From the IMG/VR virus record IMGVR_UViG_3300031565_000174: a stretch of 35,933 nucleotides of DNA; one strand, given 5' to 3'. The number at the start of each line of letters is the position of its first letter. Positions within the stretch are counted from its first letter, which is position 1. The position numbers and the translations under genes were made by a program. Below the pieces are notes generated by a model. The model was not told the origin of the DNA and searched no databases. It saw only the letters and a program-made list of their open reading frames with translations. This DNA is from a virus. This document shows positions 7,712 to 29,758 of this stretch, in pieces.

Positions 7712-8011
7712 GTGAGTATTAAAACAAATTTCATCCGTTTGCGCCGGAAATCCGATGATGTAAAACTGTCCGGTTTGTCCGCTTCTCTGCTTCCTGAGGG
7801 CGGATCCGCTCCGGGGGATCTTATTTCACTGGTACAAAATTCCGGTATAAACTGGCAGTATGACTTTCCGGGGCAGGTCACAAACGGAACTTATATTTTG
7901 TATGTGAACGGAGTGCCGGTTTTAAACGATGGTGAACCGCAGGAAGTGAGGATAATCCGCAACGGGATTATCAGTGCCGGCGATACGGATTTTGCAAAGG
8001 ATTCATGGTAA
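7712..8011 (+). CDS. Hypothetical protein (99 aa), GTG start, directly upstream of the tailspike
   Basis: ORF track. The stop at 8009-8011 is followed by the tailspike ATG at 8013. Confidence 0.55.
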   Translation: MSIKTNFIRLRRKSDDVKLSGLSASLLPEGGSAPGDLISLVQNSGINWQYDFPGQVTNGTYILYVNGVPVLNDGEPQEVRIIRNGIISAGDTDFAKDSW

Positions 8012-8012
8012 T

Positions 8013-10370
8013 ATGAGAATCATAATTATCACATTATTTCTTTTAATCTCTTCGATCTTAAATGCCCAGCCTTATCGGCTTCGCCTGGATTCGCTCAAAA
8101 TTGATTATAAACTTTATTTAGATGGTATTGACAGGATGCCGTTTTTTGAAGGTTTGGGCGATTCCAATCTGGTGCACTGGAATCAGTTATCAGATGCGGT
8201 TAAACAGCAATTGGGAGCGGGGACAGTTTATAATGCGCCGGATGATTTGACGTTGGAATTAAAGATTGAGGGTTCTGATACCACCATTGGGATTAAAGAT
8301 GAAGGTGTTTTCGGATCGGCTTTTTCCCAGTCTGCCATTGATACGATAATGAAATATGGTGGTGATTCTATTTCGGTAGTTAATGATACAATTGCTTTAC
8401 AAGAAAAAGATCTGGGCGTGGGTGGAAGATGTTTCTTAAAACAATTATCAACTGGTAATAAGTCTGGCGCAGGAATGCTTGTAGGCATCGATTCCTCGGA
8501 TTTTGGTATTGAACCAAATAGCATCGTTATTTTTGATAATCCGAATACGGATGTTATCTGGGTCAGAGATGAATTCCTGCAATTTGGGATAATCAATGTC
8601 CTGGCTGCCGGGGCAAAGGGGGACAGTATTAATGATGATACCCAGTCCATACAGGCCTGCATGGATCTTGCCCGCGACCTTCAGATTGATATTACGGATA
8701 ATTATACAGGGTTTGCTTCCGATCGCCGCGTAATCAGATCTCCTAAAATAATTATTCCATTCGGTAAAAAGGGGAAATACAGAATAACATCTCCGATTAC
8801 GATTTATAACGGCCAGGATATCGAATTCCAGAAAAGCGCTTTGGTTGCCGGCACCCAGGGAATGGTCATGGTCACAACCTTACATACGTCTGCAGGGAAC
8901 CCGGTCGCGACTTATGGGACGCGAAATCTCCGGGTTAAAGACATGATTTTATTCGGGAACGGCCTCGCTGAAAAGGGATTGTTCCTCAGGAATACCGGGG
9001 ATGGAAGTACAATATCAAACCTGGCGGTTTACGGGGTTAAAGGAAAGACGTTCGCCGATGGAACCAGGGAATGCGATATCCCGGATCTCTCCTCTAATAC
9101 AATTATAGTAGATAATGCGACCGGGCTTTTGCCTAACCAAATTATAGAGATAGAAAACTACAGCGGCTTTTTTGTGATCGAGACAATCTCCGGAACTACT
9201 GTAACCTTAAACAGGAATATAAGCGCATCTGGAGGAGTTGGAAATGTTTCAGAATTTTATTCGAGGCCGACCGGTCTACAGATCGGGCGGTGTATAGGGC
9301 TGAATATTTTCTCGCCTGAGGTCCGGTTAAATACCCTGGGGGTATATGTCGGCGATGACTCGACGGTCGGAAGATCCGCAAAGGTTCAGTTTTATGGCGC
9401 CTTTATTGAAGATAACGATTACGGGCTTTTACTCGACCGGGCGGATGCCTGTAGTTTTTACGGCCCGCTGGTTCAGCACTCGCGCCGGGGCTGGGATATT
9501 TGCATCACGAACGGGACCTGGAACAATGATTTTTATAGCCTTTATTGCGAAAGTATAAATTCAGACACGCTCGATACATACGGGACCAGAACCTTTCCGG
9601 TTATAGATATATTATGGAATTCTTTCGGGACTTCATTTCACAACCTCAGATACCCGCAAAATCCGTCTGCAGTCGGATGGCGCCGTCTTATGAGAAATTA
9701 CGGGGAAAACACTTTCGTCAGTGGGCTAAAAGTTACGGACGACGATTTAATCGAGAATCCCAGCGCGGATAATGATTATGCTCTAATCGAACAGAACCAA
9801 TCGAATGGCACTATCACGGTCCAATCATCATCCGGGTCCGCGAATATTCACAACCCATATTTATATGTTGTCGGGTCTGACGGATCTTACCCGAACGATC
9901 GGGCGTCTGTCTCTTTTCAATGGGCAAACGGACAAAGATTAAGCGGGAGATATAATTTTTATAGCGATACCGGGAGCGACCCTTTACTTTCTTTTTATAA
10001 GAGCGATACGACCTGGACCTCGACAGCGGCTCGGCTCTATCTGGCGATCAATGGTCTGCACCTGGGACATGACGACATTAGCTTTGCGAGTACGAGAATT
10101 TATAGCGACGCGACGAATCGTGTAAGGCTGGAAACCGGGGACACTTTTTATATAAATACCTCCTGGGATGGCGGTCAATTAAGGCTTGATTCCTGGCGAA
10201 TGTGGGAAGATGAAGCCGGTTATTTACGGGCGGTCGGGACCGGAGATCCGGCCAGTGACAGCGATGGATATGAATTCTTTTTAGGCGATTCAATAAGATC
10301 AGATGCCGACTCTGTATATATTTATATTCACGGAAAGTATAGCGCATTAGAATTGAAGGCAATACCATGA
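8013..10370 (+). CDS. Tailspike / polysaccharide depolymerase with right-handed beta-helix (pectate-lyase-3-like) domain
   Basis: The start is moved to ATG 8013 (MRIIIITLFLLISSILNAQ, signal-peptide-like). The motif NVLAAGAKGDSINDDTQSIQACMDLA is the classic cap of Pectate_lyase_3 / tailspike beta-helices (GAxGDGxxDDTxAIQxA). Confidence 0.7.
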   Translation: MRIIIITLFLLISSILNAQPYRLRLDSLKIDYKLYLDGIDRMPFFEGLGDSNLVHWNQLSDAVKQQLGAGTVYNAPDDLTLELKIEGSDTTIGIKDEGVFGSAFSQSAIDTIMKYGGDSISVVNDTIALQEKDLGVGGRCFLKQLSTGNKSGAGMLVGIDSSDFGIEPNSIVIFDNPNTDVIWVRDEFLQFGIINVLAAGAKGDSINDDTQSIQACMDLARDLQIDITDNYTGFASDRRVIRSPKIIIPFGKKGKYRITSPITIYNGQDIEFQKSALVAGTQGMVMVTTLHTSAGNPVATYGTRNLRVKDMILFGNGLAEKGLFLRNTGDGSTISNLAVYGVKGKTFADGTRECDIPDLSSNTIIVDNATGLLPNQIIEIENYSGFFVIETISGTTVTLNRNISASGGVGNVSEFYSRPTGLQIGRCIGLNIFSPEVRLNTLGVYVGDDSTVGRSAKVQFYGAFIEDNDYGLLLDRADACSFYGPLVQHSRRGWDICITNGTWNNDFYSLYCESINSDTLDTYGTRTFPVIDILWNSFGTSFHNLRYPQNPSAVGWRRLMRNYGENTFVSGLKVTDDDLIENPSADNDYALIEQNQSNGTITVQSSSGSANIHNPYLYVVGSDGSYPNDRASVSFQWANGQRLSGRYNFYSDTGSDPLLSFYKSDTTWTSTAARLYLAINGLHLGHDDISFASTRIYSDATNRVRLETGDTFYINTSWDGGQLRLDSWRMWEDEAGYLRAVGTGDPASDSDGYEFFLGDSIRSDADSVYIYIHGKYSALELKAIP

Positions 10371-10594
10371 ACAGGTTCTTTTATGATCTAACAAAAAGAA
10401 ACTGGGGATTACCCTGGCATATTATAATAGCATGGGGAATTACTGATATAGCAATGATTTGGGTGCATTGGTTCTGGATTTTATTTGGCATTACTCTCAT
10501 CGGTTTTGCTTATGAAAGATATCAAGATTCAACTGGTACAGTTGAGGATATGGTAGCAAATACTGTTGGATTTATCTTTGGGGTACTGTTATGA
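10367..10594 (+). CDS. Small integral membrane protein (75 aa), VanZ-like flavour
   Basis: Two or three TM segments. The end pattern EDMVANTVGFIFGVLL recalls VanZ-type proteins. First gene of the low-GC block. Confidence 0.5.
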   Translation: MNRFFYDLTKRNWGLPWHIIIAWGITDIAMIWVHWFWILFGITLIGFAYERYQDSTGTVEDMVANTVGFIFGVLL

Positions 10595-11262
10595 AATATT
10601 TAATAGAAATTATGTCTATACTATTGTTATTGTTCATATCAACATTGTTTATTGGCACAGATTATTACGTTGATAAGAATAAAGGTTCTGATGCTGCCAA
10701 TGGTTTAACCCCTGCAACGGCATGGGAGACTATATCAAAAGTAAATTCCGTAACATTTGATCCTGGAGATGTTGTACATTTTCGTACCGGAAATATATGG
10801 AGAGAAACACTAACAGTTCCCTCAAGTGGTATTCCAATAGAAGCTCTAATTTTTGAATTAGATGTTATATCTACTCAGACGATTGACGGTGCTTTTCAGA
10901 CATCATCAACATCAGATACAGTCTATGTCTATTGGGGCGATGGAACATCCGGCAAATATGTAGGAACAACAGATCAGGCGTATTCCAAAAATTACGGCAG
11001 CCCAGGAAACAGAAAAGTTAAGATATACGCGGATGATGAATCTGTATTGACGAAATATACTATGGCAACGGTGGGTGCCAACGTACAATTTGCATTGTCA
11101 GATTTGCCATCTGGCTTGACTTCTTTTTATTGTGCTGGATCAAATACTGTGTCTGGGGCATTGTCAGATTTGCCATCAGGATTAACTTATTTTTTTTGTC
11201 TTGGGTCAAATACTGTGTCTGGGGCATTGTCAGATTTGCCATCTGGCTTGACTTCTTTTTAA
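10591..11262 (+). CDS. Exported protein with beta-helix N-terminal cap and leucine-rich repeats, N-terminal segment ending at an in-frame TAA (11260-11262)
   Basis: Hydrophobic N-terminus, then DYYVDKNKGSDAANGLTPATAWETISKVNSVTFDPGDVVHFRTGNIW (typical cap of parallel beta-helix proteins), then 22-aa LRR units. The same frame continues open to 11790. Confidence 0.65.
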   Translation: MKYLIEIMSILLLLFISTLFIGTDYYVDKNKGSDAANGLTPATAWETISKVNSVTFDPGDVVHFRTGNIWRETLTVPSSGIPIEALIFELDVISTQTIDGAFQTSSTSDTVYVYWGDGTSGKYVGTTDQAYSKNYGSPGNRKVKIYADDESVLTKYTMATVGANVQFALSDLPSGLTSFYCAGSNTVSGALSDLPSGLTYFFCLGSNTVSGALSDLPSGLTSF

Positions 11263-11553
11263 TGTACCGGGACTAATACTATATCTGGGGCATTATCTGA
11301 TTTATCATCTGACGTAATTTATTTTAAATGTTATGGATCGAATACTCTTTCGGGTACGTTGTCAGATTTGCCATCTGTCTTGACTGTTTTTTATTGTGCC
11401 GGATTAAATACTGTGTCTGGAGCATTGTCAGATTTGCCATCAGGATTAACTTATTTTTTTTGTCTTGGGTCAAATACTGTATCTGGAACGTTATCAGATT
11501 TGCCATCTGACGTAATTTATTTTTATTGTGCCGGATCAAATACTATAAGTGAT
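11092..11553 (+). repeat. Seven tandem 66-bp (22-aa) coding repeats, consensus aLSDLPSGLTyFyCaGSNTVSG (LRR-like)
   Basis: Counted directly. Units begin at 11092, 11158, 11224, 11290, 11356, 11422 and 11488. Units 2 and 6 are nearly identical at the DNA level. Confidence 0.9.
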
Positions 11554-11790
11554 TTTACACCGCCGCACACATGGGCAAATAATTTTAATATGATGAATTC
11601 TAGTCCCGCTCTCGAATCGGGATTATCTTCATCAGAAGTAGATGATTTGCTTATTTCACTTGCGGCAGCAACCTGGGGTGGGAGTTCAAGGTCTTGTTGG
11701 CTTGCCGGAAATAATGCGGCAAGAACGGCTGCCAGTGATGATGCAGTTTCAACGCTTCAAGGTAAATCAGTTAACGTCACAACAAATTAA
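11359..11790 (+). CDS. C-terminal segment of the same LRR protein (same frame as 10591; callable alone only from TTG 11359)
   Basis: 10591 and 11359 share a reading frame, and there is no stop between 11263 and 11358. The repeats continue across the gap. Confidence 0.55.
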   Translation: MSDLPSVLTVFYCAGLNTVSGALSDLPSGLTYFFCLGSNTVSGTLSDLPSDVIYFYCAGSNTISDFTPPHTWANNFNMMNSSPALESGLSSSEVDDLLISLAAATWGGSSRSCWLAGNNAARTAASDDAVSTLQGKSVNVTTN

Positions 11791-11804
11791 TCGGAGTGTT
11801 AGAG

Positions 11805-12146
11805 ATGAAAATATTATTTTTATTACTTTTTTCCTTTTCTCTTTGTTACGCACAAAACACAACAGATAGAGAAGATGAATTTAAGGCAAAAAACTGCAAA
11901 CAGGTAACCAAGGCAGACATTAAGGTCAATGTAATTTCAGGAAAAGCACGTGTTATATGGGATAAATACGGCAATATTACTTATCGGCATGAAACATACA
12001 AGGGCGATGTATCAATGACATATCCGGGCTTATTTAATTTTTTTGCTGATTATGATACTAAGATAAAAGCAGATTCAGCAATAACCAAATTAAATCTTAA
12101 GGATAAAACAAATGAATATAAATTAACCGGGGATGTAAATAGATGA
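11805..12146 (+). CDS. Small exported protein (113 aa)
   Basis: ATG 11805 preceded by GGAG (11793-11796). N-terminus MKILFLLLFSFSLCYAQ looks like a signal peptide. Confidence 0.6.
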   Translation: MKILFLLLFSFSLCYAQNTTDREDEFKAKNCKQVTKADIKVNVISGKARVIWDKYGNITYRHETYKGDVSMTYPGLFNFFADYDTKIKADSAITKLNLKDKTNEYKLTGDVNR

Positions 12147-12958
12147 AGAAAATATTATTTATTTTGTTATTATTGTCTTCTCCAAATTTGAACAGTGCAG
12201 GGCTTCCGATTACATTCAGCGTATATGATTCGGCTACGGGGCTGACAGGGACGGACGCATCAGGAGCAAAGCCGATTATAGACTCTACCGGAACAGCAAT
12301 TGATTTTAATGGTAAAAGTTATATCACTCTGGAAAAGATCGAGATAAGAAATGGGTTGACTAAACTTAATCTTGGCATAAATAATATAATAAGATACTGC
12401 AAATTCGACAGCGCAGATGCAAACGCACTTCTTTTAGATGGGAAAACCAATTCCGTATATTATAATTTATTCTTAAATGGCACTACTGATGCGATAGAAG
12501 TTGATTCATCGGCGAATACAATTTATAATAATGTTATTTACGCAAATGGAAACGGATTTGACGTGGATGCTGCTGTGACTATTAAGAATAACATTGTAAA
12601 TACATCGGGGACAAATGATATAAATATTGCAGCCGGAGTAACGGTGACAGGTGGCTATAATGTTTATGAAGATGCCGCAAAAGCAGGAGACGGTACGTAT
12701 TCTGGCACTTCATTGTGGGCGGCTGATCCCCTATTCACCAATGCAGCCGGGGGTGATTTCACATTGACTGCATTGTCACCTTGTATAAATGCAGGTACTG
12801 GTGTTGGATTGGTATTAGATTACATTGGCATCACAGTACCATCACCGACAGGGACTAACCCGGATATCGGAGCGTATGAATATAGTCAGTCGGCAGGAAC
12901 AATTATAAAAAATTACTGGCCAATCTGGCCAATCTGGCCGGTTTACCCGGAACATTAA
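12143..12958 (+). CDS. Exported right-handed parallel beta-helix (PbH1) repeat protein
   Basis: Signal-like N-terminus MKKILFILLLLSSPNLNSAG, then repeated NxIxN beta-helix rungs. The C-terminal signature ADPLFTNAAGGDFTLTALSPCINAGTG...NPDIGAYEY is typical of PbH1 proteins. It ends with WPIWPIWPVYP. Confidence 0.7.
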   Translation: MKKILFILLLLSSPNLNSAGLPITFSVYDSATGLTGTDASGAKPIIDSTGTAIDFNGKSYITLEKIEIRNGLTKLNLGINNIIRYCKFDSADANALLLDGKTNSVYYNLFLNGTTDAIEVDSSANTIYNNVIYANGNGFDVDAAVTIKNNIVNTSGTNDINIAAGVTVTGGYNVYEDAAKAGDGTYSGTSLWAADPLFTNAAGGDFTLTALSPCINAGTGVGLVLDYIGITVPSPTGTNPDIGAYEYSQSAGTIIKNYWPIWPIWPVYPEH

Positions 12959-12976
12959 ATTAAGGAGAAATAGATA

Positions 12977-13432
12977 ATGAAGAAATTTTTAATATTATTT
13001 TTAATCTTAATCCCGCTCTGCCTGCCGGCCCAGATCTATGACCGGGGTATATTCGGGACCGAATCCGTAATCCTCGATCTGGATACCTGCGCAGTCTCTG
13101 ACGACAGTTTAACTTCCCGGATAGTCAACTGGCCACAATGGCGTTCGATGCGCGGTACGCTCAAGATCTGGGGCGAAATGTGGGTATTATCGGGCAAGGT
13201 TCGGACATTCACGGTCAATTTAAAACCTTTGCATGATTATGATACAAGTGAACTGGGGATTTCCAGGGAACTGGGCACGATTACCGTCACCGATTCGGTA
13301 AAATATGAATTCAGTGTGGGAAATATCGGCGCCGGTGACTGGTGGGATATTATAAAGGGTTACCAGGTAAATTTCGTTCCTGATTCAACTACTTCAGGGG
13401 TAAAAATTAAGGGGAGGGAGCTGGCAAAATGA
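12977..13432 (+). CDS. Hypothetical exported protein (151 aa)
   Basis: RBS AAGGAG (12962-12967). N-terminus MKKFLILFLILIPLCLPAQ is signal-like. No family recognised. Confidence 0.6.
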   Translation: MKKFLILFLILIPLCLPAQIYDRGIFGTESVILDLDTCAVSDDSLTSRIVNWPQWRSMRGTLKIWGEMWVLSGKVRTFTVNLKPLHDYDTSELGISRELGTITVTDSVKYEFSVGNIGAGDWWDIIKGYQVNFVPDSTTSGVKIKGRELAK

Positions 13433-13638
13433 ACTTAGAGAATAAACGTAAATTCTATATCACTGCTTTAAGTCTGATATTTTCGGCTGTATTATCAGGC
13501 ATAGTGATCTGGCAGATCCCGGCCGATGCCGTAACTCTGATCGCAGCGATCGGGGCCAATGTCACGGCCGTGAATACACCGTTCATGCTATCCAATTACG
13601 GAGAGAATAAAGTAAAGGCCCAGAATGGAAAGGTCTGA
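13429..13638 (+). CDS. Small membrane protein (69 aa)
   Basis: Two hydrophobic segments. Its ends overlap both neighbouring genes. Confidence 0.55.
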   Translation: MNLENKRKFYITALSLIFSAVLSGIVIWQIPADAVTLIAAIGANVTAVNTPFMLSNYGENKVKAQNGKV

Positions 13639-14050
13639 ATACAGGATCGGGCATCTGACTTACTTCCAGGAAGAACTGACCTATGGCCAGGATAAAAAAC
13701 TCTTAAAATTCTATAATAGTATAAGGAATAAATCGTTTAAAAATGAAGAGCTAAAACTTAAAGATCTCCCTGAGATTTTAGAAAAATACAATCTCCTGGA
13801 TTCATTCTTTGGTATACTTTTAAAGCCGAAATGGAACCTGGTTTATTTATTAAGTTTTAAATGGATCCGGTATTTATTATATGGCCAGATCGCCATTGAT
13901 AAGGCCAAAAATACGGAGATCGGAGAGATCTTCAACGATTTTTTTTTATGGAACAGGAAGTACGTGACAATATTAAAAGAATATCTGAATACCTTGGGCT
14001 TAACAGCGATAGCGATGGAGAAAACGGCGCCGGCGGAAAAGAAGGAATAA
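13625..14050 (+). CDS. Tail assembly chaperone (gpG-like, zero-frame product)
   Basis: 141-aa ORF immediately upstream of the tape measure, overlapped at its 3' end by a -1 frame ORF. This is the canonical G/GT layout. Confidence 0.65.
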   Translation: MERSEYRIGHLTYFQEELTYGQDKKLLKFYNSIRNKSFKNEELKLKDLPEILEKYNLLDSFFGILLKPKWNLVYLLSFKWIRYLLYGQIAIDKAKNTEIGEIFNDFFLWNRKYVTILKEYLNTLGLTAIAMEKTAPAEKKE

Positions 14051-14223
14051 TACGGGAATCTTTTATTATCGGTGAGGAAGAGGATTTTGAAGGCTGGCTC
14101 AATTTTAAACTGATAGAAGTCAATGCATTGAACGGAGAATTTAATCATAAAAAATCTAAAAAATTGGATAAACTGCCGGTTGTCGAAGTTTATCTCCGGG
14201 CATATTCAAATTTGAAGAGGTAG
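13625..14223 (+). CDS. Tail assembly chaperone -1 frameshift fusion product (gpGT-like)
   Basis: Zero-frame codons start at positions 2 mod 3. The overlapping ORF (13948-14223) is in frame 1 mod 3, which is -1. The slippery heptamer T TTT TTA at 13942-13948 lies in the overlap. Confidence 0.55.
13942..13948 (+). other. Candidate -1 programmed ribosomal frameshift site TTTTTTA within a T9 run
   Basis: Zero-frame codons are GAT TTT TTT TTA TGG (D F F L W). Slipping back 1 nt continues with ATG GAA CAG... (MEQEVRD...). Confidence 0.55.
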
Positions 14224-14275: not shown

Positions 14276-16495
14276 ATGGCATTAAAGGGAAGTCAAATAG
14301 ATCTGATACTCGGATTAAAATTGTCCGAGTTTTTTAATGCCAATAAAAAGGCCTGGGTTGAATATTCCAAAACCAAGGGAAAGATAGAAAAGGATCCGGT
14401 TCGTTTCAGGGAAACAGGAAGTAAGAGCCTGCTCGCCACCATGGCAAAGATGGGCGCCCTTTATCTTGTCATAACCAGGGCAATCCCTGATATGATCCGC
14501 GTGTCGAACGAGCAGGAAAAAGCCGATACCAGGCTTGCCCAGGCGCTAAAAAACGTAAATGAATATTCCGAAGAGAATTTCCGATTGTTCAAACAACAGG
14601 CATCGGCCATTCAGAATATTACGATAGTCGGTGATGAACAATCCGAAATGCTTCAGACCCTGGCGCTTAATATGGGAATTAATACGAAAAGACTTGATGA
14701 GGCAACCAGGGGAGCGATAGGTTTATCATCCGCCTTTAGTTCCGCCGGACTTTCCCAGGAAACGGCCATGAAGGGAGTCGCCCTGGCCTACCAGGGGAAT
14801 TTTGAACAGCTGCAAAGATATATTCCCGCCTTAAGAACTACCAAAGATGTAACTGAAAAAATGGCCATCCTTCAAAAAGCGATGGCCGATGGATTTAAAA
14901 TGGCGACTGAGGAGGCAAAAAGCGGCGCCGGTCAGATGCAGCAATTCTCAAATCTGGTGGGTGATTTTAAGGAAGAGATCGGGGATCTCATAAAAAGCGC
15001 TCTCATGCCCATGATTCAGACCGGCAAGCCGATCGTTCAATGGCTTAATGATATGGATGAGGGTACCCGGAATACAACGCTGGCCATGTCCGGGTTTATT
15101 CTTATTACGCCCAAACTAATTACAGCGCTTCGGGGTTTAAGCATTGCCATTGGACCTGCAGGTTGGTTAACCCTGGCCCTGGGAGTGATTATTACTTTGT
15201 GGCTTGAAAATGAATCCGCCGCAGAAAGAGCGGCGACAGCCATAAGAAATTATAAAAAAGCCGCCGATGAATTAAATACGGATCAAATAGAAAAAGAGAT
15301 TAAAGAATTAAATGATGAAATAGAGCGGACTAAAAAATTAATTACGGAAGAGTTGGAAGAAGGTCCTAGTATATTTGATGTAATTTTAGCCGGTGCCCGA
15401 TCTGTTATCGGGGGATTTTCCGCTGTAGAATTACCCGTTGAAAGATACATTGATCAGTTGGGAGAATTAAATAATAAGGAAAAAGCTTATAACGAAATAT
15501 TAAAAGAGAGAAATGAAATAAAAGCAGGTGCAAAGCCCGTAATACCGGAGATCCCGGGAACTCCGGGTGCTAGAGCTCCCGCTGAAATTCTAACTCCTGA
15601 CATTGAACCATTAAAAGCCATTCATAAAGATATGCTGGGTGAAGAACAGCAATTCCGATTTAAAATGCTTGATATCAGCACGCAATTTGATGAGCTGGGG
15701 ATGACTGGGTTAAATGATGAATATGCGCGGAAAACAATGCTGCTCGATGATCAATTGGACCAGGTCCGGGAGCATTTAGGCGAAGAATCACAATTATACC
15801 AGGATCTGGCATTAAAAAAACTGGTCACAGAAAAGAACTATCAGAAACAGAAAAATAAGCTCGCGGAATTAGCGATTAAAGAAGCGGCAGCGTTGGGCGA
15901 TGAAGTGATGCAGACTTTCCAGGCCCAGAGCAGTATTTTGTTTGGTATCGGAAAAGCGCTGGCCATGGCCAACCTGGCCATAACCAAGGGTGAAGCGATC
16001 GCCCGGGCATATAAGGATTATCCCTGGCCCTTCAATCTTATAGTTATGGGAATCCAGGCGGCCCTTGTCGCTCAACAGATCGCCAATGTTTCTAAAGTAA
16101 ATTTTAAACCAACGGGTAAAAAAGAGGGCGGAGTTTTAACTTCCAGGGATATTATCGGCCGTTCATTCCTGCCTCCGGAAGAAGACGGATATTTTGCTGG
16201 TCAATTGGGCGAAATGGTGATGAACCGTTATGCGACCAGGAAATATTTTCCGGTCTTAAATCAGATGAATCGGGAAAAGAGAAGGGGATTCGCGGAAGGG
16301 GGTATTATTCAAAACGGAGATCTGTCGACACCGATCGCATCGGAAGATTTGACACTGCTTTCCGCAGTGGTTGAAAATGCTATTATATCCGGTTTTAGTA
16401 AGTCATCTATAAAGGTTAAAGGTGAATTCAGGCAATCCGGTAGAGACATGAGAGCTGTTCTTGATAAAATAGAAGAATTAAAGGAGCAGGCTTAA
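14276..16495 (+). CDS. Tail tape measure protein (739 aa)
   Basis: Longest helical ORF, directly downstream of the G/GT chaperones. It has internal hydrophobic segments, coiled-coil regions and a TP901-type core-like N-terminal half. Confidence 0.8.
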   Translation: MALKGSQIDLILGLKLSEFFNANKKAWVEYSKTKGKIEKDPVRFRETGSKSLLATMAKMGALYLVITRAIPDMIRVSNEQEKADTRLAQALKNVNEYSEENFRLFKQQASAIQNITIVGDEQSEMLQTLALNMGINTKRLDEATRGAIGLSSAFSSAGLSQETAMKGVALAYQGNFEQLQRYIPALRTTKDVTEKMAILQKAMADGFKMATEEAKSGAGQMQQFSNLVGDFKEEIGDLIKSALMPMIQTGKPIVQWLNDMDEGTRNTTLAMSGFILITPKLITALRGLSIAIGPAGWLTLALGVIITLWLENESAAERAATAIRNYKKAADELNTDQIEKEIKELNDEIERTKKLITEELEEGPSIFDVILAGARSVIGGFSAVELPVERYIDQLGELNNKEKAYNEILKERNEIKAGAKPVIPEIPGTPGARAPAEILTPDIEPLKAIHKDMLGEEQQFRFKMLDISTQFDELGMTGLNDEYARKTMLLDDQLDQVREHLGEESQLYQDLALKKLVTEKNYQKQKNKLAELAIKEAAALGDEVMQTFQAQSSILFGIGKALAMANLAITKGEAIARAYKDYPWPFNLIVMGIQAALVAQQIANVSKVNFKPTGKKEGGVLTSRDIIGRSFLPPEEDGYFAGQLGEMVMNRYATRKYFPVLNQMNREKRRGFAEGGIIQNGDLSTPIASEDLTLLSAVVENAIISGFSKSSIKVKGEFRQSGRDMRAVLDKIEELKEQA

Positions 16496-18006: not shown

Positions 18007-18338
18007 TGGAAACAGTCGGTTTTAAACATGCATCCGGGGATCCTTCCTTCACGGAATTCGATGCGGTTTTGGTTATTCCGGACTGGGATGTTCAAAATAC
18101 AATATATAGTGATATCAATGATAATTTAAGAAAGATTGTAGATGTCAAGCATAAGGTCTGGAAAATTACATTCGCCGCCATCGATGTTAGTGGACAAGAT
18201 TTTCTTATTGATATGAAGGGTGAGGAAGCGCCGCAAATGTATTATGATTCGGCGACTTATAATATCCGGGTACTTGAATCTAACATAAAACATATCGGTT
18301 CAATGATAACGGTATCAAAGGTTGAAAAAACAACATGA
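18006..18338 (+). CDS. Hypothetical tail-associated protein (110 aa)
   Basis: Start-stop overlaps (ATAATG / ATGA) couple it to both neighbours. Confidence 0.6.
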   Translation: METVGFKHASGDPSFTEFDAVLVIPDWDVQNTIYSDINDNLRKIVDVKHKVWKITFAAIDVSGQDFLIDMKGEEAPQMYYDSATYNIRVLESNIKHIGSMITVSKVEKTT

Positions 18339-18712
18339 AAGGGAGACTCCAATATTGTGATACTGAACTGGGGACCTATGAAGATGTCGGGACCATCAGG
18401 ACAAAGAAAAATCAGGATTATAAGATTGAAGCGATTACCGGTAAAAATCGTATTGAAGAGGTTGAAGTTCTTGGTTTTCGTGTCTCCGTACGGGCTCTGG
18501 CACTTGAATTAGATCCGAATTTCCTGGATCAGAATATTTGGTATTTTAAGGTTTGTTTTCCAGACATATCAATTAAATTTGGGCAGCGTCCTTATACGAT
18601 TGATTATGACGGGCTGCTCCGAATTCATGAAATTGAATATCATACGGTTGAGATCAGTTTTACAATTGATGCTGATGAATATTCATCATATGCACTTAGC
18701 CGGCATCCTTAA
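18335..18712 (+). CDS. Hypothetical protein, paralog A of a tandem pair (125 aa)
   Basis: Roughly 60-65 percent identical by eye to the next ORF (MKGRLQYCDTELGTYEDVGTIRTKKNQDYKIEA... versus MKGILQYCATEDGTYKNVGTIRSAKNQDYRIEA...). Confidence 0.65.
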   Translation: MKGRLQYCDTELGTYEDVGTIRTKKNQDYKIEAITGKNRIEEVEVLGFRVSVRALALELDPNFLDQNIWYFKVCFPDISIKFGQRPYTIDYDGLLRIHEIEYHTVEISFTIDADEYSSYALSRHP

Positions 18713-18741
18713 ATAAATATTTTTTTAAATGGAAATTAATA

Positions 18742-19176
18742 ATGAAAGGAATATTACAATACTGTGCAACCGAAGACGGAACATATAAAAATGTGGGAAC
18801 GATCCGATCGGCTAAAAATCAGGATTACCGGATTGAAGCAGTTACCGCTAAAAACCGCATTGAGGAAGTTGAGGCGCTGGCCAGTCGTGTTTATGTCCGT
18901 GCCTTGTGCCTTGAATTAAATGATGATTTTTTAGACCAGGATGAATGGTTCTTCCGGATTGCTTATTTTGATGACCTGGTCATGGTTAAATTGGGAGAGC
19001 ATCCTTATACTATTGATTATGATGGATTACTCCGTTTTAACCAAATTGAATATCATACGGTTGAAATCAGTTTTACTATTAATTTTGATGAATATGATTA
19101 CTATGGAGATACGGAACCGCTACCGGAAGAGGAGGGCGGTATTATTGTTGAGGATGATGATATTTATATAGAATGA
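18742..19176 (+). CDS. Hypothetical protein, paralog B of a tandem pair (144 aa) with acidic C-terminal extension
   Basis: See paralog A. The tail is TEPLPEEEGGIIVEDDDIYIE. Confidence 0.65.
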   Translation: MKGILQYCATEDGTYKNVGTIRSAKNQDYRIEAVTAKNRIEEVEALASRVYVRALCLELNDDFLDQDEWFFRIAYFDDLVMVKLGEHPYTIDYDGLLRFNQIEYHTVEISFTINFDEYDYYGDTEPLPEEEGGIIVEDDDIYIE

Positions 19177-19184
19177 ATCTAACT

Positions 19185-19817
19185 TTACCAATTTCTAGGT
19201 TTTGAAATTCTTTTACCATTGCTTAATATAAATGGATTTTTGAATTGAAAATTTATATATTTTGTTGGTTTTATTAAGAAATAATTACCATCAACAAGTT
19301 GACCCAATTCTTTGTTTTTTCTTCTATATGGGAAGATAAAGTAAGTAATTTTACCTGGATAAACATCCTTTGCTAATTTTATTATAGGGACCAAGTCAGT
19401 ATCGCCTGAAACAATTACTGCCGATTCACATTCATTTTTCATATATATTTCTATTAATTTTGCTGCTACTGCTACATCTGTTTCTTTTTCTTCATGACGT
19501 AAAATAGTTGAAGCACAGTTTGGGCAAGTAATTTCTTTTTCTTTAAATCTATTCTCCTCACAAATTACACCGGTTTCTTTTAAGCATCTAATATATTTTC
19601 TATGCTTATGAACATTTCGAGGACCTGTATGGTGAGCTAGGGCTGTAAAATAGTAAACATTATTAATCACTGCGTCTTTTGAAATATGTGGTAGATAAGA
19701 TTGGACAAGAGATTTAATATCAAGCCATTTCGTTGAAGCGCCGGCTAAATATTTACCGGCTTCCCTCAAGGAGTGATAAAGATTAAATCCGTCGATTATG
19801 AAATTTATTCTATTCAT
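19185..19817 (-). CDS. NYN-domain (LabA/DUF88-like) putative ribonuclease with Cys-rich insert
   Basis: From ATG 19817: MNRINFIIDGFNLYHSL...EKETDVAVAAKLIEIYMKNECESAVIVSGDTDLVPIIKLAKDVYPGKITYFIF matches the NYN/PIN-like acidic motifs (IDGxN ... D ... SGDxD). The insert carries CPNC. Confidence 0.65.
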   Translation of the reverse strand: MNRINFIIDGFNLYHSLREAGKYLAGASTKWLDIKSLVQSYLPHISKDAVINNVYYFTALAHHTGPRNVHKHRKYIRCLKETGVICEENRFKEKEITCPNCASTILRHEEKETDVAVAAKLIEIYMKNECESAVIVSGDTDLVPIIKLAKDVYPGKITYFIFPYRRKNKELGQLVDGNYFLIKPTKYINFQFKNPFILSNGKRISKPRNW

Positions 19818-19819
19818 AA

Positions 19820-19871
19820 TAAAAAACCCTTTGGATCGTAACCCAAAGGGGGCCAAGTGTGAACCACTTGG
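19820..19871 (-). terminator. Leader with two hairpins; the proximal one is terminator-like and sequesters the RBS-like AAAGGG just upstream of the NYN start
   Basis: Minus strand reads CCAAGTG-gttca-CACTTGG, then CCCTTTGG-gttacgat-CCAAAGGG, then TTTTTTATT, then ATG (19817). Confidence 0.5.
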
Positions 19872-19883
19872 GGATGATGGCTA

Positions 19884-19913
19884 AATATAATAGAATTACT
19901 TAACATATGTCAA
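19884..19913 (-). promoter_or_regulatory. Sigma-70-like promoter on the minus strand (TTGACA, 17-18 nt spacer, TTATAT/TATATT)
   Basis: Reverse complement of 19908-19913 is TTGACA. Reverse complement of 19884-19890 contains TATATT/TTATAT. Confidence 0.45.
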
Positions 19914-19964
19914 GTAATAAAATGACATCGTGCAATTTTCTAGTTATAAAGCACATCTGAATTA

Positions 19965-20507
19965 TTAATGAGCTTTCGATATTTTTTCATAAAATTCCCT
20001 AAACCCTGGTCTTGCCGTCGTAGGAGCATCAGAGGAAAACTCTCCTTCAACAAATTCTTTATCTAAATCAATTTTAACTAATACCTTTTTACCTTCGATT
20101 AATTGCTTTATAAATTTTTTAGATATTAAATAATCTTTTGAAGACCAACTTGTCGAGGATACATGTGTATATTTATCATAAATTCCTGGATCTATTTCTA
20201 TATCAGTAATTTCATCAAATGATTCCATTGAAATAAATTCGCCATCAATATTAAAATGTAATGATTTACCTTTTGAAAAATTACTTATGCCTTTAACAAT
20301 TGCGGTTAATATTACTGAAGAATCAGGCATTTTACTCGAATGGAATAGGCCTAATTTCATAGGACTACTATATAACCATGCCGGTTCCATTTGTATCATT
20401 CTTGTACCATCAAAATCCGAGACACTTTCAGATACCCAGCCTGGACCCCCAGGTATTGTATAACATGAAAATATAAAAGGAATTATTAAAATAATTAAAA
20501 ATTTCAT
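19965..20507 (-). CDS. Lipoprotein (180 aa), candidate lysogenic-conversion / superinfection-exclusion factor
   Basis: MKFLIILIIPFIFSC has a lipobox-like IFSC. It lies immediately downstream of the repressor on the same strand. Confidence 0.6.
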   Translation of the reverse strand: MKFLIILIIPFIFSCYTIPGGPGWVSESVSDFDGTRMIQMEPAWLYSSPMKLGLFHSSKMPDSSVILTAIVKGISNFSKGKSLHFNIDGEFISMESFDEITDIEIDPGIYDKYTHVSSTSWSSKDYLISKKFIKQLIEGKKVLVKIDLDKEFVEGEFSSDAPTTARPGFREFYEKISKAH

Positions 20508-20522
20508 GATTTTAACTTTAGT

Positions 20523-20966
20523 TTAATCCATATATTTTTTGTTTTTCCCATCACCATCATCGAGGTAAATATTTTCTTTTTCGATATCAAACATGGCGCA
20601 TGTAACTCTTAATAATTTTTCTCTATGGTCCGGAGGAAGACTTGAAACGATATGTAATATCTCTTCCACATATGGTTTTCTAAAAACACCGCGTTTTTCA
20701 TTTTCACTAAAGGGAGAAAATGGCTCAATTACAATTAAAGTTTTTTCATTATTAATTTCCGGGGATCCTTCACCGGTAATCAACCAGTTAAAATTTATAT
20801 TCTCGCATTTGGAAAATATTAAATTCCAATCAATTTTATTTCTTTTTTTCCAGGACGATAAAGTATTTGATGCTAATCCTAGAAATTCACTTAATTTATT
20901 GTATTTTTTAAATTTATATATTTGCATCAAACGATCAATTACCAATTCAGCTAATACTTTTTCCAT
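20523..20966 (-). CDS. CI-type phage repressor (Phage_CI_repr HTH family), no S24 peptidase domain
   Basis: KKYNKLSEFLGLASNTLSSWKKRNKIDWNLIFSKCENINFNWLITGEG matches the recalled CI-repressor HTH family signature (...S.W..R...P......dWLl.G.G). It is divergent from the early operon. Confidence 0.7.
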   Translation of the reverse strand: MEKVLAELVIDRLMQIYKFKKYNKLSEFLGLASNTLSSWKKRNKIDWNLIFSKCENINFNWLITGEGSPEINNEKTLIVIEPFSPFSENEKRGVFRKPYVEEILHIVSSLPPDHREKLLRVTCAMFDIEKENIYLDDGDGKNKKYMD

Positions 20967-20994
20967 AAAATCTCTCTATATGCGAATATTTATC

Positions 20995-21023
20995 TTGACT
21001 TTCTCGCATGATGCGATTATATT
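20995..21023 (+). promoter_or_regulatory. Rightward early promoter candidate: TTGACT (20995-21000), 17 nt, TATATT (21018-21023)
   Basis: Read directly. A minus-strand TATAAT (reverse complement of 21016-21021) overlaps it, as expected for a divergent switch. Confidence 0.5.
21004..21016. promoter_or_regulatory. Operator candidate: perfect 13-bp palindrome TCGCATgATGCGA inside the promoter spacer
   Basis: Read directly. A degenerate copy (TCTCTATATGCGA) lies at 20973-20985, 31 bp away centre to centre. Confidence 0.5.
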
Positions 21024-21083
21024 TATCCAGTCTTATTTAATTCCTTGACCCATTTGGGTTACGAATTGATCTTTGAAAATAAA

Positions 21084-21345
21084 GCCGGCAGGAACAGCCT
21101 GTGTCATTCGTTTTAACAGCTAGGTTCACTAACAAATGCGACCAAGCATTTGCTAAACCTATGATCATGCTGCTAATCGGTAACTCTAAAAAACCATTCC
21201 GAAACCTATCTCAGAGTATTAATACTCTTCGAGGAGCCTGCCATTCATTCCTATTGATAAAGGGTAGGGCGACCGGGAGATTATTTTATAGGACGGATCC
21301 TATAAAAGGTGATCCCCTTCAAGTCCACTTCCGGTTCCTGCCGGC
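21084..21345 (+). ncRNA. Candidate structured RNA (independent ncRNA or long 5' leader of the early operon); class not recognised
   Basis: A 12-bp closing helix pairs GCCGGCAGGAAC (21084-21095) with GTTCCTGCCGGC (21334-21345). Internal perfect hairpins lie at 21133-21152 (7 bp), 21213-21228 (8 bp) and 21284-21307 (9 bp). The only ORF is GTG-started (21101-21367), and the segment is GC-richer than its flanks. Confidence 0.3.
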
Positions 21346-21419
21346 GCTAAGGGCTTCGCTATTTTAGATCATCGGCATATAGGATATTGAATCAATTAAC
21401 AATTTTTAAGGACCATCTT

Positions 21420-21638
21420 ATGGACGAAATAAAAAAATTCAGAATCGCTTTACTCTATTCCGATCTTGATTATGAAACTTTCGGCAAGATCCATGGCGTT
21501 GGAAAACAGAATGTATATGCAACGGTACGGGCCATGAAGATTGGTATACCGCAATCTGCCAGGATCCGGGAAGCGATCAAGAATTTTACCAGGGAGCAGT
21601 TAATCCTTCTGCGTTATGCCATCGATAAGGCTGCCTGA
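21420..21638 (+). CDS. Cro-like small HTH regulator (72 aa from ATG 21420; TTG 21387 also possible)
   Basis: AAGGA lies 8 nt upstream of ATG 21420. YETFGKIHGVGKQNVYATVRA looks like an HTH. First gene of the rightward operon. Confidence 0.55.
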   Translation: MDEIKKFRIALLYSDLDYETFGKIHGVGKQNVYATVRAMKIGIPQSARIREAIKNFTREQLILLRYAIDKAA

Positions 21639-21646
21639 TACCCGTG

Positions 21647-21664
21647 AATATAATATATTATATT
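21647..21664. promoter_or_regulatory. Perfect 18-bp AT-only palindrome AATATAATATATTATATT
   Basis: Verified by reverse-complementing by hand. It lies in the intergenic gap between the cro-like and CII-like genes. Confidence 0.3.
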
Positions 21665-21757
21665 TACGCTGTCAATATTAATCGGGAAGTTTCCACCTTA
21701 GTAAAAGGTAAGACAGCTTCCGTTAAAATGAAATTATAATTTTGGGAGAGATTATAA

Positions 21758-22213
21758 ATGGATTATGAAAATCTGGCTGAATGGCAGGTCGTCAGCGAGA
21801 TCCTGCACAACAACCCCGAAAGTTTAACCGTACTTCAAATTGCCAACCGCCTGGGTATTACCGACATTAACGTATACAAATGGGGCCAGGATCCGGAGTT
21901 TTCTGGTACTGTGATGCCTAAAAAGTATGAAATCCCATTCTCAAATGTAACCGGCGATAAACGTCTATTCGAATGGAAGGCCTCACAGATCGGATACCGG
22001 TTAAAGCCGCTTGAGATCGGCGCCGTAAATAAAGATGATATTTTTACCCAGTTCCTCGATGCCGGCAATCTCTTAGGTAAAGCAATGGGCGAACTTAAAA
22101 TATCTCTGGTTGACGGGAAATTAGACGATAGTGATAAGATGAAATTGCGGACCGTGCTTGATGTACTGATCAGGCACTGCCAGGGTATAAAAGATTCAAT
22201 CGGAGCATTATAA
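21758..22213 (+). CDS. HTH regulatory protein, CII (CP76)-like
   Basis: N-terminal HTH LTVLQIANRLGITDINVYKWGQD. C-terminal LVDGKLDDSDKMKLRTVLDVLIRHCQGI resembles the DGxIxxxE helix of the Phage_CP76 family. Memory only. Confidence 0.4.
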   Translation: MDYENLAEWQVVSEILHNNPESLTVLQIANRLGITDINVYKWGQDPEFSGTVMPKKYEIPFSNVTGDKRLFEWKASQIGYRLKPLEIGAVNKDDIFTQFLDAGNLLGKAMGELKISLVDGKLDDSDKMKLRTVLDVLIRHCQGIKDSIGAL

Positions 22214-22890
22214 TGCCCTTAAAATACAACCTAAATTTACTAAAAGAAAAATTCTCACTCACCACCGCTGAAATCGAAAGTTTTATCGATAACGGTTTGC
22301 TGATACCGGACGGCTGGAATCAGCTCAAACCCACGGTCCAGGATCTGATCATAAAGGATGGATTCGTAAGCCAGATCTGGTCCGCTAAAGAAGTTGAAAG
22401 ATTCGATCGCATTATCAATCAAGTCAAAGATAAACACCTCCATTTTTATCATATCGTAAATACCAGGCTGAATGAAATTGACGCCGGTTTCCAGGATAGT
22501 TATGAACAGATTTACAAATCAATCAATAAACTCCGCTATGATTTTAATAAACTGCGATCGAGAATCGAACGTAAAGAAATTATGATTGATATAGAATATT
22601 TTTGCCAGATGACCGGAATGTCCAAACAGACATTTTATAACACGAAGGTATATCTCGATAATAAAAAGCTCGTCTGCAGATTAAAAAAGACAGTTTACAA
22701 AGATCTGATATGGTACAAAATCAAAGGGACCTGGCAGACACCACTTATAAACTTTGAAGAGATCCGCAGCGGGTTTACTTATGAACTCTGGCTGGATGAG
22801 AAAAAAAGGCGCGGGGAATTTATCCCAGCCTTAAATGCCAGCATCGAGGAGATTATAAAACTGGATAAGAACATCGGTAAAAGTGAGTAA
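22213..22890 (+). CDS. Hypothetical DNA-binding protein with two HTH-like segments (225 aa)
   Basis: LTTAEIESFIDNGLL and IEYFCQMTGMSKQTFYNTKVY look like excisionase/MerR-type HTHs. It has an ATAATG overlap with the upstream gene. Confidence 0.5.
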   Translation: MPLKYNLNLLKEKFSLTTAEIESFIDNGLLIPDGWNQLKPTVQDLIIKDGFVSQIWSAKEVERFDRIINQVKDKHLHFYHIVNTRLNEIDAGFQDSYEQIYKSINKLRYDFNKLRSRIERKEIMIDIEYFCQMTGMSKQTFYNTKVYLDNKKLVCRLKKTVYKDLIWYKIKGTWQTPLINFEEIRSGFTYELWLDEKKRRGEFIPALNASIEEIIKLDKNIGKSE

Positions 22891-22907
22891 CTAAATAAAT
22901 AAATCAA

Positions 22908-23080
22908 GAGGTATATTTTAAAGAGAGGTTTAAAAGGGGAATCTTATTTAAGAGACTTAAAATCAATTAGATAGGCGGAAATAAAGAAGATTGTATACTA
23001 TGAAAATTGTTACATAATATACAATCCGTTAACACCAAACAAATCCCCTTTTAACCTCTTTTAAATCATAAGTATACCTC
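22908..23080. repeat. Nested imperfect inverted repeats in a 237-bp intergenic region
   Basis: Outer pair: GAGGTATA (22908-22915) with TATACCTC (23073-23080). Middle pair: AGAGGTTTAAAAGGGGA (22924-22940) with TCCCCTTTTAACCTCT (23044-23059). Inner pair: GATTGTATA (22989-22997) with TATACAATC (23018-23026). Confidence 0.8.
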
Positions 23081-23127
23081 AGAATTTCTAAAAATTTTTA
23101 AGCTAGTATAGCAGGAGGGTTTTACTT

Positions 23128-23370
23128 ATGACACTACTCCGTGTCTATATTGATGAGCAAAAAAAAGATTACGAAACGGCCGTTTCTATCTTAAAAAATA
23201 CCCTGGAAAAAATAAATCAAAAAGGTATAATCCTAGACAGCGATCAGGAAGAATTAATAATTCATGCCGTCGGTCATTTTAATGAGGATGCTATCTCTAT
23301 TAAAGAATTTCAAGAATTACTCGCTGGATTATTCAGGGATTTCAGCAAAAACCAAAAAGGTGATAAATGA
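23128..23370 (+). CDS. Hypothetical protein (80 aa)
   Basis: RBS AGGAGGG (23112-23118). Confidence 0.6.
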   Translation: MTLLRVYIDEQKKDYETAVSILKNTLEKINQKGIILDSDQEELIIHAVGHFNEDAISIKEFQELLAGLFRDFSKNQKGDK

Positions 23371-23696
23371 AACGTCAGACTATCGGAATTTCGGATGCGG
23401 AAGATTTAGATCTCCAATTAATCACTTATTTCAAATCAAGATTCGGATTTGATATGGCGATCCGTCCGATGAGTAATATAAATATCGGAACGAAGGAAAA
23501 ACCAATATTGGTTGATTGTGATATCAGTAAGCCAGGGAGGTATTACGATCATTTTGCCTGGATTGGGAAACTTGCAGATCAGATCGAAGAGGATCCGGAC
23601 CGGATAGTTTACATTGTTCAGAACGCAGAAGGTGAAAGAGCGGTCGGCGTTAATAGGGTCACTGGTACACGACGACCCGGGAAGGGGGTATCATGA
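23367..23696 (+). CDS. Hypothetical protein (109 aa)
   Basis: ATGA overlap with the upstream gene. No motif recognised. Confidence 0.6.
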   Translation: MKRQTIGISDAEDLDLQLITYFKSRFGFDMAIRPMSNINIGTKEKPILVDCDISKPGRYYDHFAWIGKLADQIEEDPDRIVYIVQNAEGERAVGVNRVTGTRRPGKGVS

Positions 23697-23917
23697 GTTT
23701 ATGGATATATGGTTTAATCTGGATTATTACCGCTATCATTCTGGCTTTATTTTTCGGCCGCTTTATGGCGAATCAGAATAAAATGATAAAAAAAATGTTT
23801 CTTGAAGAGTTCAGGCGGCAGCGTGAATTTAATGAATATATGAATAGGCAGTTGCACCAGACTTTTAACAGAATTTCAAAGAAGAAAGAAGATATGGTCC
23901 ATGGCAAAAATAAATGA
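23693..23917 (+). CDS. Small membrane protein (74 aa)
   Basis: N-terminal TM segment LWIYGLIWIITAIILALFFG. ATGA overlap. Confidence 0.55.
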   Translation: MSLWIYGLIWIITAIILALFFGRFMANQNKMIKKMFLEEFRRQREFNEYMNRQLHQTFNRISKKKEDMVHGKNK

Positions 23918-24188
23918 CGATTCTTTAGGTATTTTTATGATGTTAATCGCAATTGTATTAATTATCGTACTTTTTATACAAAACAATGAACTCAATGATG
24001 AAATTAAAGAAATCACATCCGCCAATGAAAATGAATTTATGATGATTTCAGATATTCAATTCAAAACACTAGTTAGGGTTGCTGAATATTACGGGGATAT
24101 CGATTCAGTCGAAGTTGATGTTAAGATGAATTCCATCAAGTTCTATTTTAAACATAAAACCGATGAAAGAGATCTGACCAGTTTTTAA
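23901..24188 (+). CDS. Small membrane protein (95 aa)
   Basis: TM segment LGIFMMLIAIVLIIVLFI. Confidence 0.55.
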   Translation: MAKINDDSLGIFMMLIAIVLIIVLFIQNNELNDEIKEITSANENEFMMISDIQFKTLVRVAEYYGDIDSVEVDVKMNSIKFYFKHKTDERDLTSF

Positions 24189-24195
24189 GGATATT

Positions 24196-24540
24196 ATGAA
24201 TATTATATTTGATCCGGTTGAAACAGATACACGCCTGGTAATTCCGCCCAGGTGCCGGGGCTGCCTTATAACCTGCCAGCACAACGGCCGTACGATGGCC
24301 GCCTGGAAGGCTGATGAGGAATTAATCCGATTAAGTTTAACCGGACTTAATAAATGCAATACGAAATACCGGGTGGTGGTAAAAGAAGATAATTCATTGA
24401 TGGAGATAATCAAATATGCTTTCTATTCAAAATTACTTAGAGGCGCGATACGAAGTATACAACAGGATACTAAGAAGGGTCGTATTCCAGGCGCCGGAAA
24501 GAAAAGACTGCCGGCAGTGGCTCGGAAGTCTGATAAATGA
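24196..24540 (+). CDS. Hypothetical protein (114 aa); the 3' third may be non-coding read-on
   Basis: ORF track. The basic low-complexity tail overlaps a better-looking 52-aa ORF in another frame. Confidence 0.45.
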   Translation: MNIIFDPVETDTRLVIPPRCRGCLITCQHNGRTMAAWKADEELIRLSLTGLNKCNTKYRVVVKEDNSLMEIIKYAFYSKLLRGAIRSIQQDTKKGRIPGAGKKRLPAVARKSDK

Positions 24541-24574
24541 TCCGGATCTTGAGATGAGAAAGATTAAAGATTAA
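24416..24574 (+). CDS. Unlisted small ORF (52 aa, MLSIQNYLEARYEVYNRILRRVVFQAPERKDCRQWLGSLINDPDLEMRKIKD)
   Basis: Hand translation. GGAG (24402-24405) lies upstream, and its TAA overlaps the next ATG as TAATG (24572-24576). Confidence 0.4.
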   Translation: MLSIQNYLEARYEVYNRILRRVVFQAPERKDCRQWLGSLINDPDLEMRKIKD

Positions 24575-24741: not shown

Positions 24742-24764
24742 AGCAACTTCGGAAAGGACTTAAT

Positions 24765-26310: not shown

Positions 26311-26345
26311 TGAAAATACATAAATGAAATGAAGGAGGAAATAGG

Positions 26346-26561: not shown

Positions 26562-26746
26562 AAGCAAAGTTATTATCTTTTAACCGTTTAACTCTATTCG
26601 AATTGGAACACATAAAATTTTTAGAGGGCATCGAACTTTATGGTGAATATGAAGAGTATGAAATGCTGAATAAATTATTTAAAGTTATTTTGAATTAATA
26701 TAGATAAACAACTATACAAGTAAAACGGTCATGAAGGGGGTACTAG

Positions 26747-29325: not shown

Positions 29326-29328
29326 AAA

Positions 29329-29751: not shown

Positions 29752-29758
29752 TTAGAGA

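Follow-up and report, generated by a model that had tools for sequence, protein, structure and literature searches.

A probable, very recent nonsense allele in the leucine-rich-repeat array of an adhesin-type gene of a temperate tailed phage

Bacterial adhesins of the leucine-rich-repeat (LRR) class, internalin-like or SDS22-like, are built from 22-residue repeats, carry an N-terminal export signal and are polymorphic in repeat number, and natural premature-stop alleles are well known for inlA of Listeria. A similar protein is encoded by the virus record IMGVR_UViG_3300031565_000174, a stretch of 35,933 nucleotides that was analysed at its full length and is called the window here. Its LRR-protein gene (10591..11790, plus strand, as are all parts of the gene located below) comprises 399 sense codons and a terminal TAA, with one internal TAA. 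The protein differs from internalin-class adhesins in its repeat consensus, in lacking a cap, an Ig-like inter-repeat and LPXTG, and in being phage-encoded. Two other systems invite comparison: the RcGTA head spike fibre, which binds capsular polysaccharide (PMC10218006), and the diversity-generating retroelements (DGRs), which one source describes as targeting phage receptor-binding proteins (PMC10743442). The evidence presented below leads us to favour, as the probable explanation, that the internal TAA is a real, very recent and unprogrammed nonsense allele, truncating an accessory adhesin-type protein in this haplotype.

Translation of 10400-12000 confirmed the frame proposed in an earlier reading made from the letters alone (the sequence-only reading): the frame of the ATG at 10591 contains exactly two stops, an in-frame TAA at 11260..11262 (codon 224) and the terminal TAA at 11788-11790. 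Tandem Repeats Finder detected a 66-bp period over 11092-11544 (6.9 copies, 76% matches, 0% indels) as well as higher-order periods of 132 and 198 bp. With the units set in register, the seven 66-bp units of the sequence-only reading were recovered at 11092..11553, each encoding 22 residues with the consensus LxxLPxGLTxFxCxGSNT[VI]SG, in phase with the open reading frame and continuing in phase past the stop. The TAA occupies unit position 12 of unit 3, that is, the x of F-x-C in the middle of the first beta-strand, and the codons at this position in the other units are exactly those listed earlier: TAT (units 1, 5 and 7), TTT (units 2 and 6) and AAA (unit 4). The pairwise correspondence of units also held, units 2 and 6 differing at 2 of 66 bases and units 1 and 5 at 8 of 66. 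Unit 3 agrees with unit 1 at every one of its first 38 bases, and its last 28 bases show 8-10 differences from each other unit (8 from unit 1). Separately, units 2 and 6 each contain a T8 homopolymer (11190..11197 and 11454-11461, respectively); these runs are in frame, do not differ in the near-identical ENA contig L001 and are potential slippage sites.

Beyond the stop, the 3' remainder of the gene (11263..11790) runs for 175 codons in frame and holds units 3b-7 and the C-terminal domain, undegraded. This is not a chance open frame, as the 175 codons encode the rest of the array together with a C-terminal domain whose conservation extends over more than 100 homologues. At this locus two genes had been called, of 223 and 125 aa, and both pieces cluster with intact proteins.

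Intact versions of the gene were found in phage genomes about 99.99% identical to the window. The closest, P0001 (one JGI contig of 23,957 bp), encodes 399 aa and is identical to the window translation except for a Glu in place of the stop at residue 224; downstream of the stop the two agree residue for residue. P0121 (four JGI contigs, up to 35,906 bp) also encodes 399 aa and differs from the window by Y224, A226, S228 and V231, which makes its unit 3 an exact protein copy of unit 1. P0002 (six ENA contigs) encodes 355 aa, corresponding to the window protein minus 44 residues (units 2-3), with five units left; the same protein results when any one of 28 equivalent 44-residue windows is taken out of P0121. 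Among more distant relatives, whose loci were located with a 10-sequence alignment, none of 20 carried an in-frame stop in the aligned gene, 7 of the 20 contigs ending inside the gene. The look at orthologues called for by the sequence-only reading therefore returned three intact alleles and no interrupted relative: the frame is broken in the window and intact in its close orthologues P0001, P0121 and P0002, which is the pattern of a fresh nonsense allele. Together with the undegraded 3' part, this leaves two of the explanations first listed, a fresh nonsense mutation and population or assembly heterogeneity, as those that fit best.

The allele comparison also bears on the base change itself. 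It had been pointed out that TAA is one substitution away from TAT; this is true, but GAA (Glu) is the likelier source, since P0001 carries Glu. As the closest intact allele differs from the window at residue 224 and nowhere else, the parsimonious reading is a change between GAA and TAA and not from TAT to TAA, the codon GAA being deduced from the amino acid. Translation from the ATG at 10591 would then end at codon 224 and yield a 223-residue fragment made of a hydrophobic helix, a PKD-like domain and 2.5 LRR units. Missing from such a fragment would be the remaining solenoid and the conserved C-terminal domain, and the LRR gene is therefore most likely inactivated in the window genome. The phage would tolerate this loss because the protein would be an accessory binding module and not an essential part of the virion.

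Several points weigh against this interpretation. A consensus or base-call error at the TAA, instead of a real allele, is possible; the codon GAA of P0001 is read from protein and not from DNA; and TAA could be ancestral, with GAA as the reversion. The presumed dispensability is drawn solely from the existence of this one assembled haplotype. Finally, the hydrophobic N-terminal helix and the exported-looking gene block around the gene, both described below, could point to a surface protein exported by the lysogen instead of a part of the virion.

The first of these points can be considered together with the behaviour of the array in assemblies. The TAA variant is known from one contig only. 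When the neighbouring 75-aa and 113-aa proteins were used as queries, they recovered only Logan contigs breaking at the array edges, L005 and L006 ending at its two edges. Contigs of relatives (L016, L019, L020, L021, L022, L025 and L026) likewise stop within the LRR array or at its edge. Such breaks indicate that these arrays are systematically hard to assemble and that copy numbers in databases may be unreliable. No match was obtained in GenBank phage DNA (distant mode), in IMG/VR queried with the single protein, or in JGI metagenome contigs, whether queried with the protein or with an exact DNA pattern having N as the variable base; exact-product look-ups of P0001 and P0121 likewise gave no record. 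Less likely than a real allele, in our judgement, is an artefact of sequencing or assembly, or else a minor variant that an assembler worked into a consensus built from a mixed population of repeat alleles. Besides the broken assemblies (L005 and L006, and the 7 of 20 relatives' contigs) and the single contig, the existence of several alleles makes mixtures likely. In addition, TAA corresponds to the first base of TAT joined to the last base of GAA, and an allele switch inside the codon would create it. Such a switch point, however, must fall within 1-2 bases. Moreover, the longest exact repeats inside the array of the window measure at most 59 nt, which 150-nt reads and large k can resolve, and De Bruijn assemblers invent no k-mers, so reads with TTTTTAATGTACC must exist.

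Returning to the preferred interpretation of a real nonsense allele, we considered how the allele may have arisen in relation to the other three. Over 21 kb, the window and the ENA contig L001 differ by one single-nucleotide polymorphism (SNP, at 21013) and one 132-bp indel. Pairwise alignment placed the segment absent from the five-unit allele of L001 at 11152..11283 or, equivalently, at units 2-3 (11158-11289). Four loci from other samples (L003-L006) match the window at 100% identity over stretches of 3.7-11.9 kb. The LRR gene thus has four alleles, those of the window, P0001, P0121 and P0002, in an otherwise near-clonal background. The early description of the array as recombination-prone and heterogeneous is borne out by these alleles and by the two-unit indel, and as judged from sequence comparison the array is the variable spot of this phage, polymorphic in the population. 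In the history that we propose, a divergent unit-3 allele with Glu and its nonsense derivative would stand one base apart. Gene conversion of unit 3 by unit 1 would then have given P0121 and made the two units identical, after which unequal recombination between them would have produced the five-unit P0002. The array would accordingly change fast, by gene conversion and unequal crossing-over between 66-bp units, the directions of the individual steps being our reconstruction.

The same alleles can be read as those of a contingency locus, in which OFF alleles (with the stop) and ON alleles interconvert by gene conversion or deletion and an adhesin is switched at the level of the population. The other two intact alleles fit recombinational repair, the second half of unit 3 in P0121 having been overwritten by unit 1, and the relation of P0002 to P0121 (minus two units, 28 equivalent junctions) points to recombination between long perfect repeats; variation is also concentrated in the array, with the rest of the genome near-clonal. 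We nevertheless consider this reading improbable. The OFF state stems from a point substitution and not from a repeat mechanism, so nothing in the array generates OFF alleles: the 66-bp unit is frame-neutral and preserves the frame at any copy number, and crossing-over within the 38 bases common to units 1 and 3 retains the stop. A single OFF contig is known, and interrupted arrays were found in none of the relatives. No invertase is present, and no donor cassette for the second half of unit 3 was found in the window or the fetched loci, the best match in the window having 8 mismatches in 30. The on/off switch by repeat recombination, raised in the sequence-only reading, therefore has no direct support. 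A more specific version is also hard to credit: nonsense alleles would arise at a hypervariable concave-face codon and be rescued from unit 1 (as in P0121) or deleted (as in P0002), in a contingency locus of a temperate phage of Bacteroidota. If the contingency reading were true, the population would keep switching both the presence and the specificity of an accessory adhesin.

Programmed readthrough or stop reassignment would yield the full-length protein despite the TAA, and the open, undegraded frame of 175 codons past the stop is what such a process would leave. In the window, TAA ends 20 of 46 genes, TGA 25 and TAG 1, so TAA acts as a normal terminator. ARAGORN found no tRNA genes in the window and hence no suppressor tRNA. 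The base after the in-frame TAA is T, and in E. coli a U after TAA makes for strong termination. No stimulatory structure was apparent either: the 90 nt after the stop fold at -9.8 kcal/mol, weaker than their shuffles (-13.7 +/- 2.9 kcal/mol) and weaker than the equivalent stretches of other units. Recoding that is in use would also be expected to leave the stop conserved in orthologues, and it is absent from the three other alleles and from the 20 relatives; the intact state of the 3' part is explained by recency, the genomes being about 99.99% identical. We rejected programmed readthrough on these grounds and regard it as very improbable. Restart of translation fared no better as a route to the downstream part. 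The stop shares bases with an ATG (TAATG), but that ATG opens another frame, which ends after 4 codons, and no in-frame ATG follows the stop before 11560, where only TTG and GTG occur, with no obvious ribosome-binding context.

Directed diversification was considered as a source of the clustered unit-3 changes, the stop among them. As in phase-variable or DGR-diversified receptor-binding genes, variation here lies in a putative binding surface, with several alleles in a near-clonal phage. The 8 substitutions in 28 bases that separate unit 3 from unit 1 fall at predicted surface positions in an otherwise near-identical genome. Unlike those systems, the locus shows no reverse transcriptase, template repeat, invertase or frame-shifting simple repeat, and the stop is an ordinary substitution. 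No Pfam match to a reverse transcriptase occurs in the gene lists of L001 and L002, which cover about 590-30,544 of the window, and no template repeat is present in the window. The substitutions are not adenine-specific in either direction, and the target is not a variable region of the C-type-lectin or Ig type. Within the reach of these data, hypermutation by a DGR was therefore rejected, and the chance that it made the stop appears very small.

The fold of the intact allele was predicted with AlphaFold2 (AF2) from an input of 120 homologues, giving a mean predicted local distance difference test score (pLDDT) of 86.7, with values above 90 from residue ~85 on. The model supports the assignment of the repeats to the LRR type made in the sequence-only reading. 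The array (residues 168-321) is modelled at pLDDT ~90-98, with one strand-turn-strand-3/10 unit per repeat, and among PDB structures Foldseek ranks the LRR ectodomains BRI1 (4m7e) and RGFR1 (5hz1), plus SDS22 (6obn), highest, at probability 1.00 and E=8e-5 to 7e-3 over 200-290 columns. According to the model, the repeats are of the LRR type and form a curved solenoid with a parallel beta-sheet. The likeness to these ectodomains extends to the 22-residue repeats with a hydrophobic/Cys/Asn core, the N-x-x-S-G turn and the alternation of variable residues along the beta-strand; the window protein differs from them in being phage-encoded and flanked by a PKD-like and a distinct C-terminal domain. 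The sequence itself supports the LRR assignment less strongly than the model: Pfam LRR_4 (PF12799) scored 19.4 bits on the window protein (E=0.0012) and did not pass its gathering cut-off of 27; several homologues carry precomputed PF12799 matches. The family profile gave no match to PDB chain sequences.

The array is preceded by three segments. DSSP on the AF2 model assigns residues 2-19 (10594..10647; hydropathy 2.81) to an N-terminal hydrophobic, signal-anchor-like helix, and a signal-like hydrophobic N-terminus occurs in 11 of 116 family members, about 10%. Residues 21-69 (10651..10797), modelled at pLDDT 45-64, resemble the first rungs of a beta-helix glycosidase: residues 22-51 match phrog_16653 (E=5.6e-6), and residues 21-69 match NCBIfam LnbX (E=1.4e-4, far under the cut-off of that model). 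This stretch is probably a chimeric remnant or linker, and suggests that the start of a beta-helix gene was joined to a PKD-LRR module. Residues 85-167 (10843..11091) form an all-beta, PKD-like sandwich with pLDDT above 95 and a WGDG motif, whose residues W115, G116, D117 and G118 are invariant in the family alignment. No Pfam PKD match was obtained for this domain at E<=0.1, and its best structural matches in BFVD are phage proteins annotated as having PKD domains. The best viral structural matches of the protein (E=5e-9 to 3e-8), BFVD A0A6J5NQL4, M4QPG4 of Synechococcus phage S-SKS1 and G8EY18 of S-CAM8, share in their predicted structures a PKD-like sandwich with repeats and are named PKD-domain or LRR proteins. 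They are unlike it in their low identity (18-21%) and TM-scores (0.19-0.34), and they are functionally uncharacterised. After the array, residues 322-399 (11554..11787) make up the conserved C-terminal alpha/beta domain, with pLDDT 95-99 and conserved columns in two family alignments; it ends in ...TVTTN in most relatives.

Over 373 family units, the x of F-x-C, where the stop falls, has the highest entropy of the 21 repeat positions analysed (3.41 bits), followed by the x after Cys (3.27 bits), whereas L4, P5, L8, F11, C13, G15 and N17 are nearly invariant. In the AF2 model, residue 224 lies mid-strand (DSSP strand 222-227), between the conserved core residues F223 and C225. By LRR architecture its side chain would point outward on the ligand-binding sheet. 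A nonsense hit at codon 224 is unsurprising, as this is a freely varying codon, often TAT and here GAA, one step from TAA.

The module formed by the PKD-like domain, the LRR array and the C-terminal domain belongs to a large family. A HMMER scan of 1.84 billion representatives returned 296 clusters (50% identity) at E<=1e-30 and 1,364 at E<=1e-10. With members in phage structural modules, this shows that the earlier remark that LRR proteins are uncommon in phages was overstated for this family. The LRR and C-terminal module lies mostly at the extreme C-terminus of proteins 300-1,900 residues long. One family member is encoded directly downstream of a tape-measure gene in a contig with a Mu-like capsid, another near an adaptor gene in a contig with a P22-type portal, and a third, P0004, adjoins a T4-type portal in a 157-kb myovirus-like contig. 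Sipho-, podo- and myovirus contigs, and with them all three tailed-phage morphotypes, widely carry the module in their structural regions. In P0004, an NCBIfam GTA head-spike-fibre domain (E=1e-31) lies upstream of the PKD-LRR-C-terminal module. Taken together, the LRR fold, the C-terminal placement, the structural-gene context, the P0004 fusion and the capsule binding of RcGTA suggest by analogy that the module is a distal binding module of phage fibres or spikes, for which a role as adhesin or receptor-binding protein is a reasonable conjecture. The resemblance to the RcGTA head spike fibre and to phage fibre tips lies in that fusion, in the C-terminal module and in the structural gene clusters; the window protein is unlike the RcGTA fibre in having no recognisable fibre-anchor domain, with a hydrophobic helix and a beta-helix-like remnant in its place. 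As a separate observation, P0003 (JGI, 394 aa, on a 1,943-bp contig) opens with one copy of the C-terminal domain, directly after which comes a full PKD-LRR-C-terminal module, showing that modules can stand in tandem within one protein.

The window carries a 40-bp exact terminal direct repeat (1-40 and 35894-35933) and is collinear with contigs of 35.8-36.0 kb obtained in other assemblies; on both counts it probably represents a whole phage genome of about 36 kb, circular or circularly permuted. Genes called in the near-identical contigs encode a portal, a capsid, a head-tail connector, an M15 peptidase, a tape-measure protein (gene at 14276-16495 of the window) and a CI-type repressor, and by this predicted gene content the phage is a temperate tailed phage. 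More distant relatives of the LRR gene occur in contigs binned as Bacteroidota and Flavobacteriales, and several genes near the LRR gene begin with Bacteroidota-style signal peptides, which makes it likely that the host is a member of the Bacteroidota. PHROG scans of the genes neighbouring the LRR gene gave little information.

Around the LRR gene, the block 7974-13638, which forms part of the structural module and precedes the tail chaperones and the tape measure, consists of genes with signal-peptide-like or membrane-spanning N-termini, which are unusual in virion proteins. It encodes a 785/798-aa pectate-lyase-like protein, the 75-aa membrane protein, the LRR protein, the 113-aa protein, a 271-aa beta-helix or 'choice-of-anchor Q' protein, a 151-aa protein and a 69-aa membrane protein. 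Further downstream, the run TTTTTTTTTA at 13939-13948, in the overlap of the open reading frames 13625-14050 and 13948-14223 and directly upstream of the tape-measure gene, is a candidate tail-assembly-chaperone frameshift site of the classical type. Two genes downstream of the tape-measure region, 18335-18712 and 18742-19176, are tandem paralogues with ~71% DNA identity over 355 bp. The SNP at 21013 (G in the window, T in L001) is intergenic, just upstream of the CI-type repressor gene (20523-20966, minus strand), and possibly lies within the lysis-lysogeny control region. Another ENA contig, L002 (36,037 bp), shares 99.97% identity with window 18531-30544. From window position 30545 onward the two part: apart from 61 bp, blastn matches nothing in the window to the last 2.9 kb of L002 (12016-14940). 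This has the look of a module replaced in mosaic fashion between phages that are identical elsewhere.

For annotation, these results mean that the 223-aa and 125-aa pieces are one disrupted gene, and represent neither two genes nor a case of recoding. The stop codon itself is an ordinary event that matters mainly in this respect. The PKD-LRR-C-terminal module constitutes a large uncharacterised family and a candidate receptor-binding or adhesion module, and the four alleles of the array of this phage, in a genome otherwise ~99.99% identical, provide a clean natural example of fast array change by intragenic recombination.

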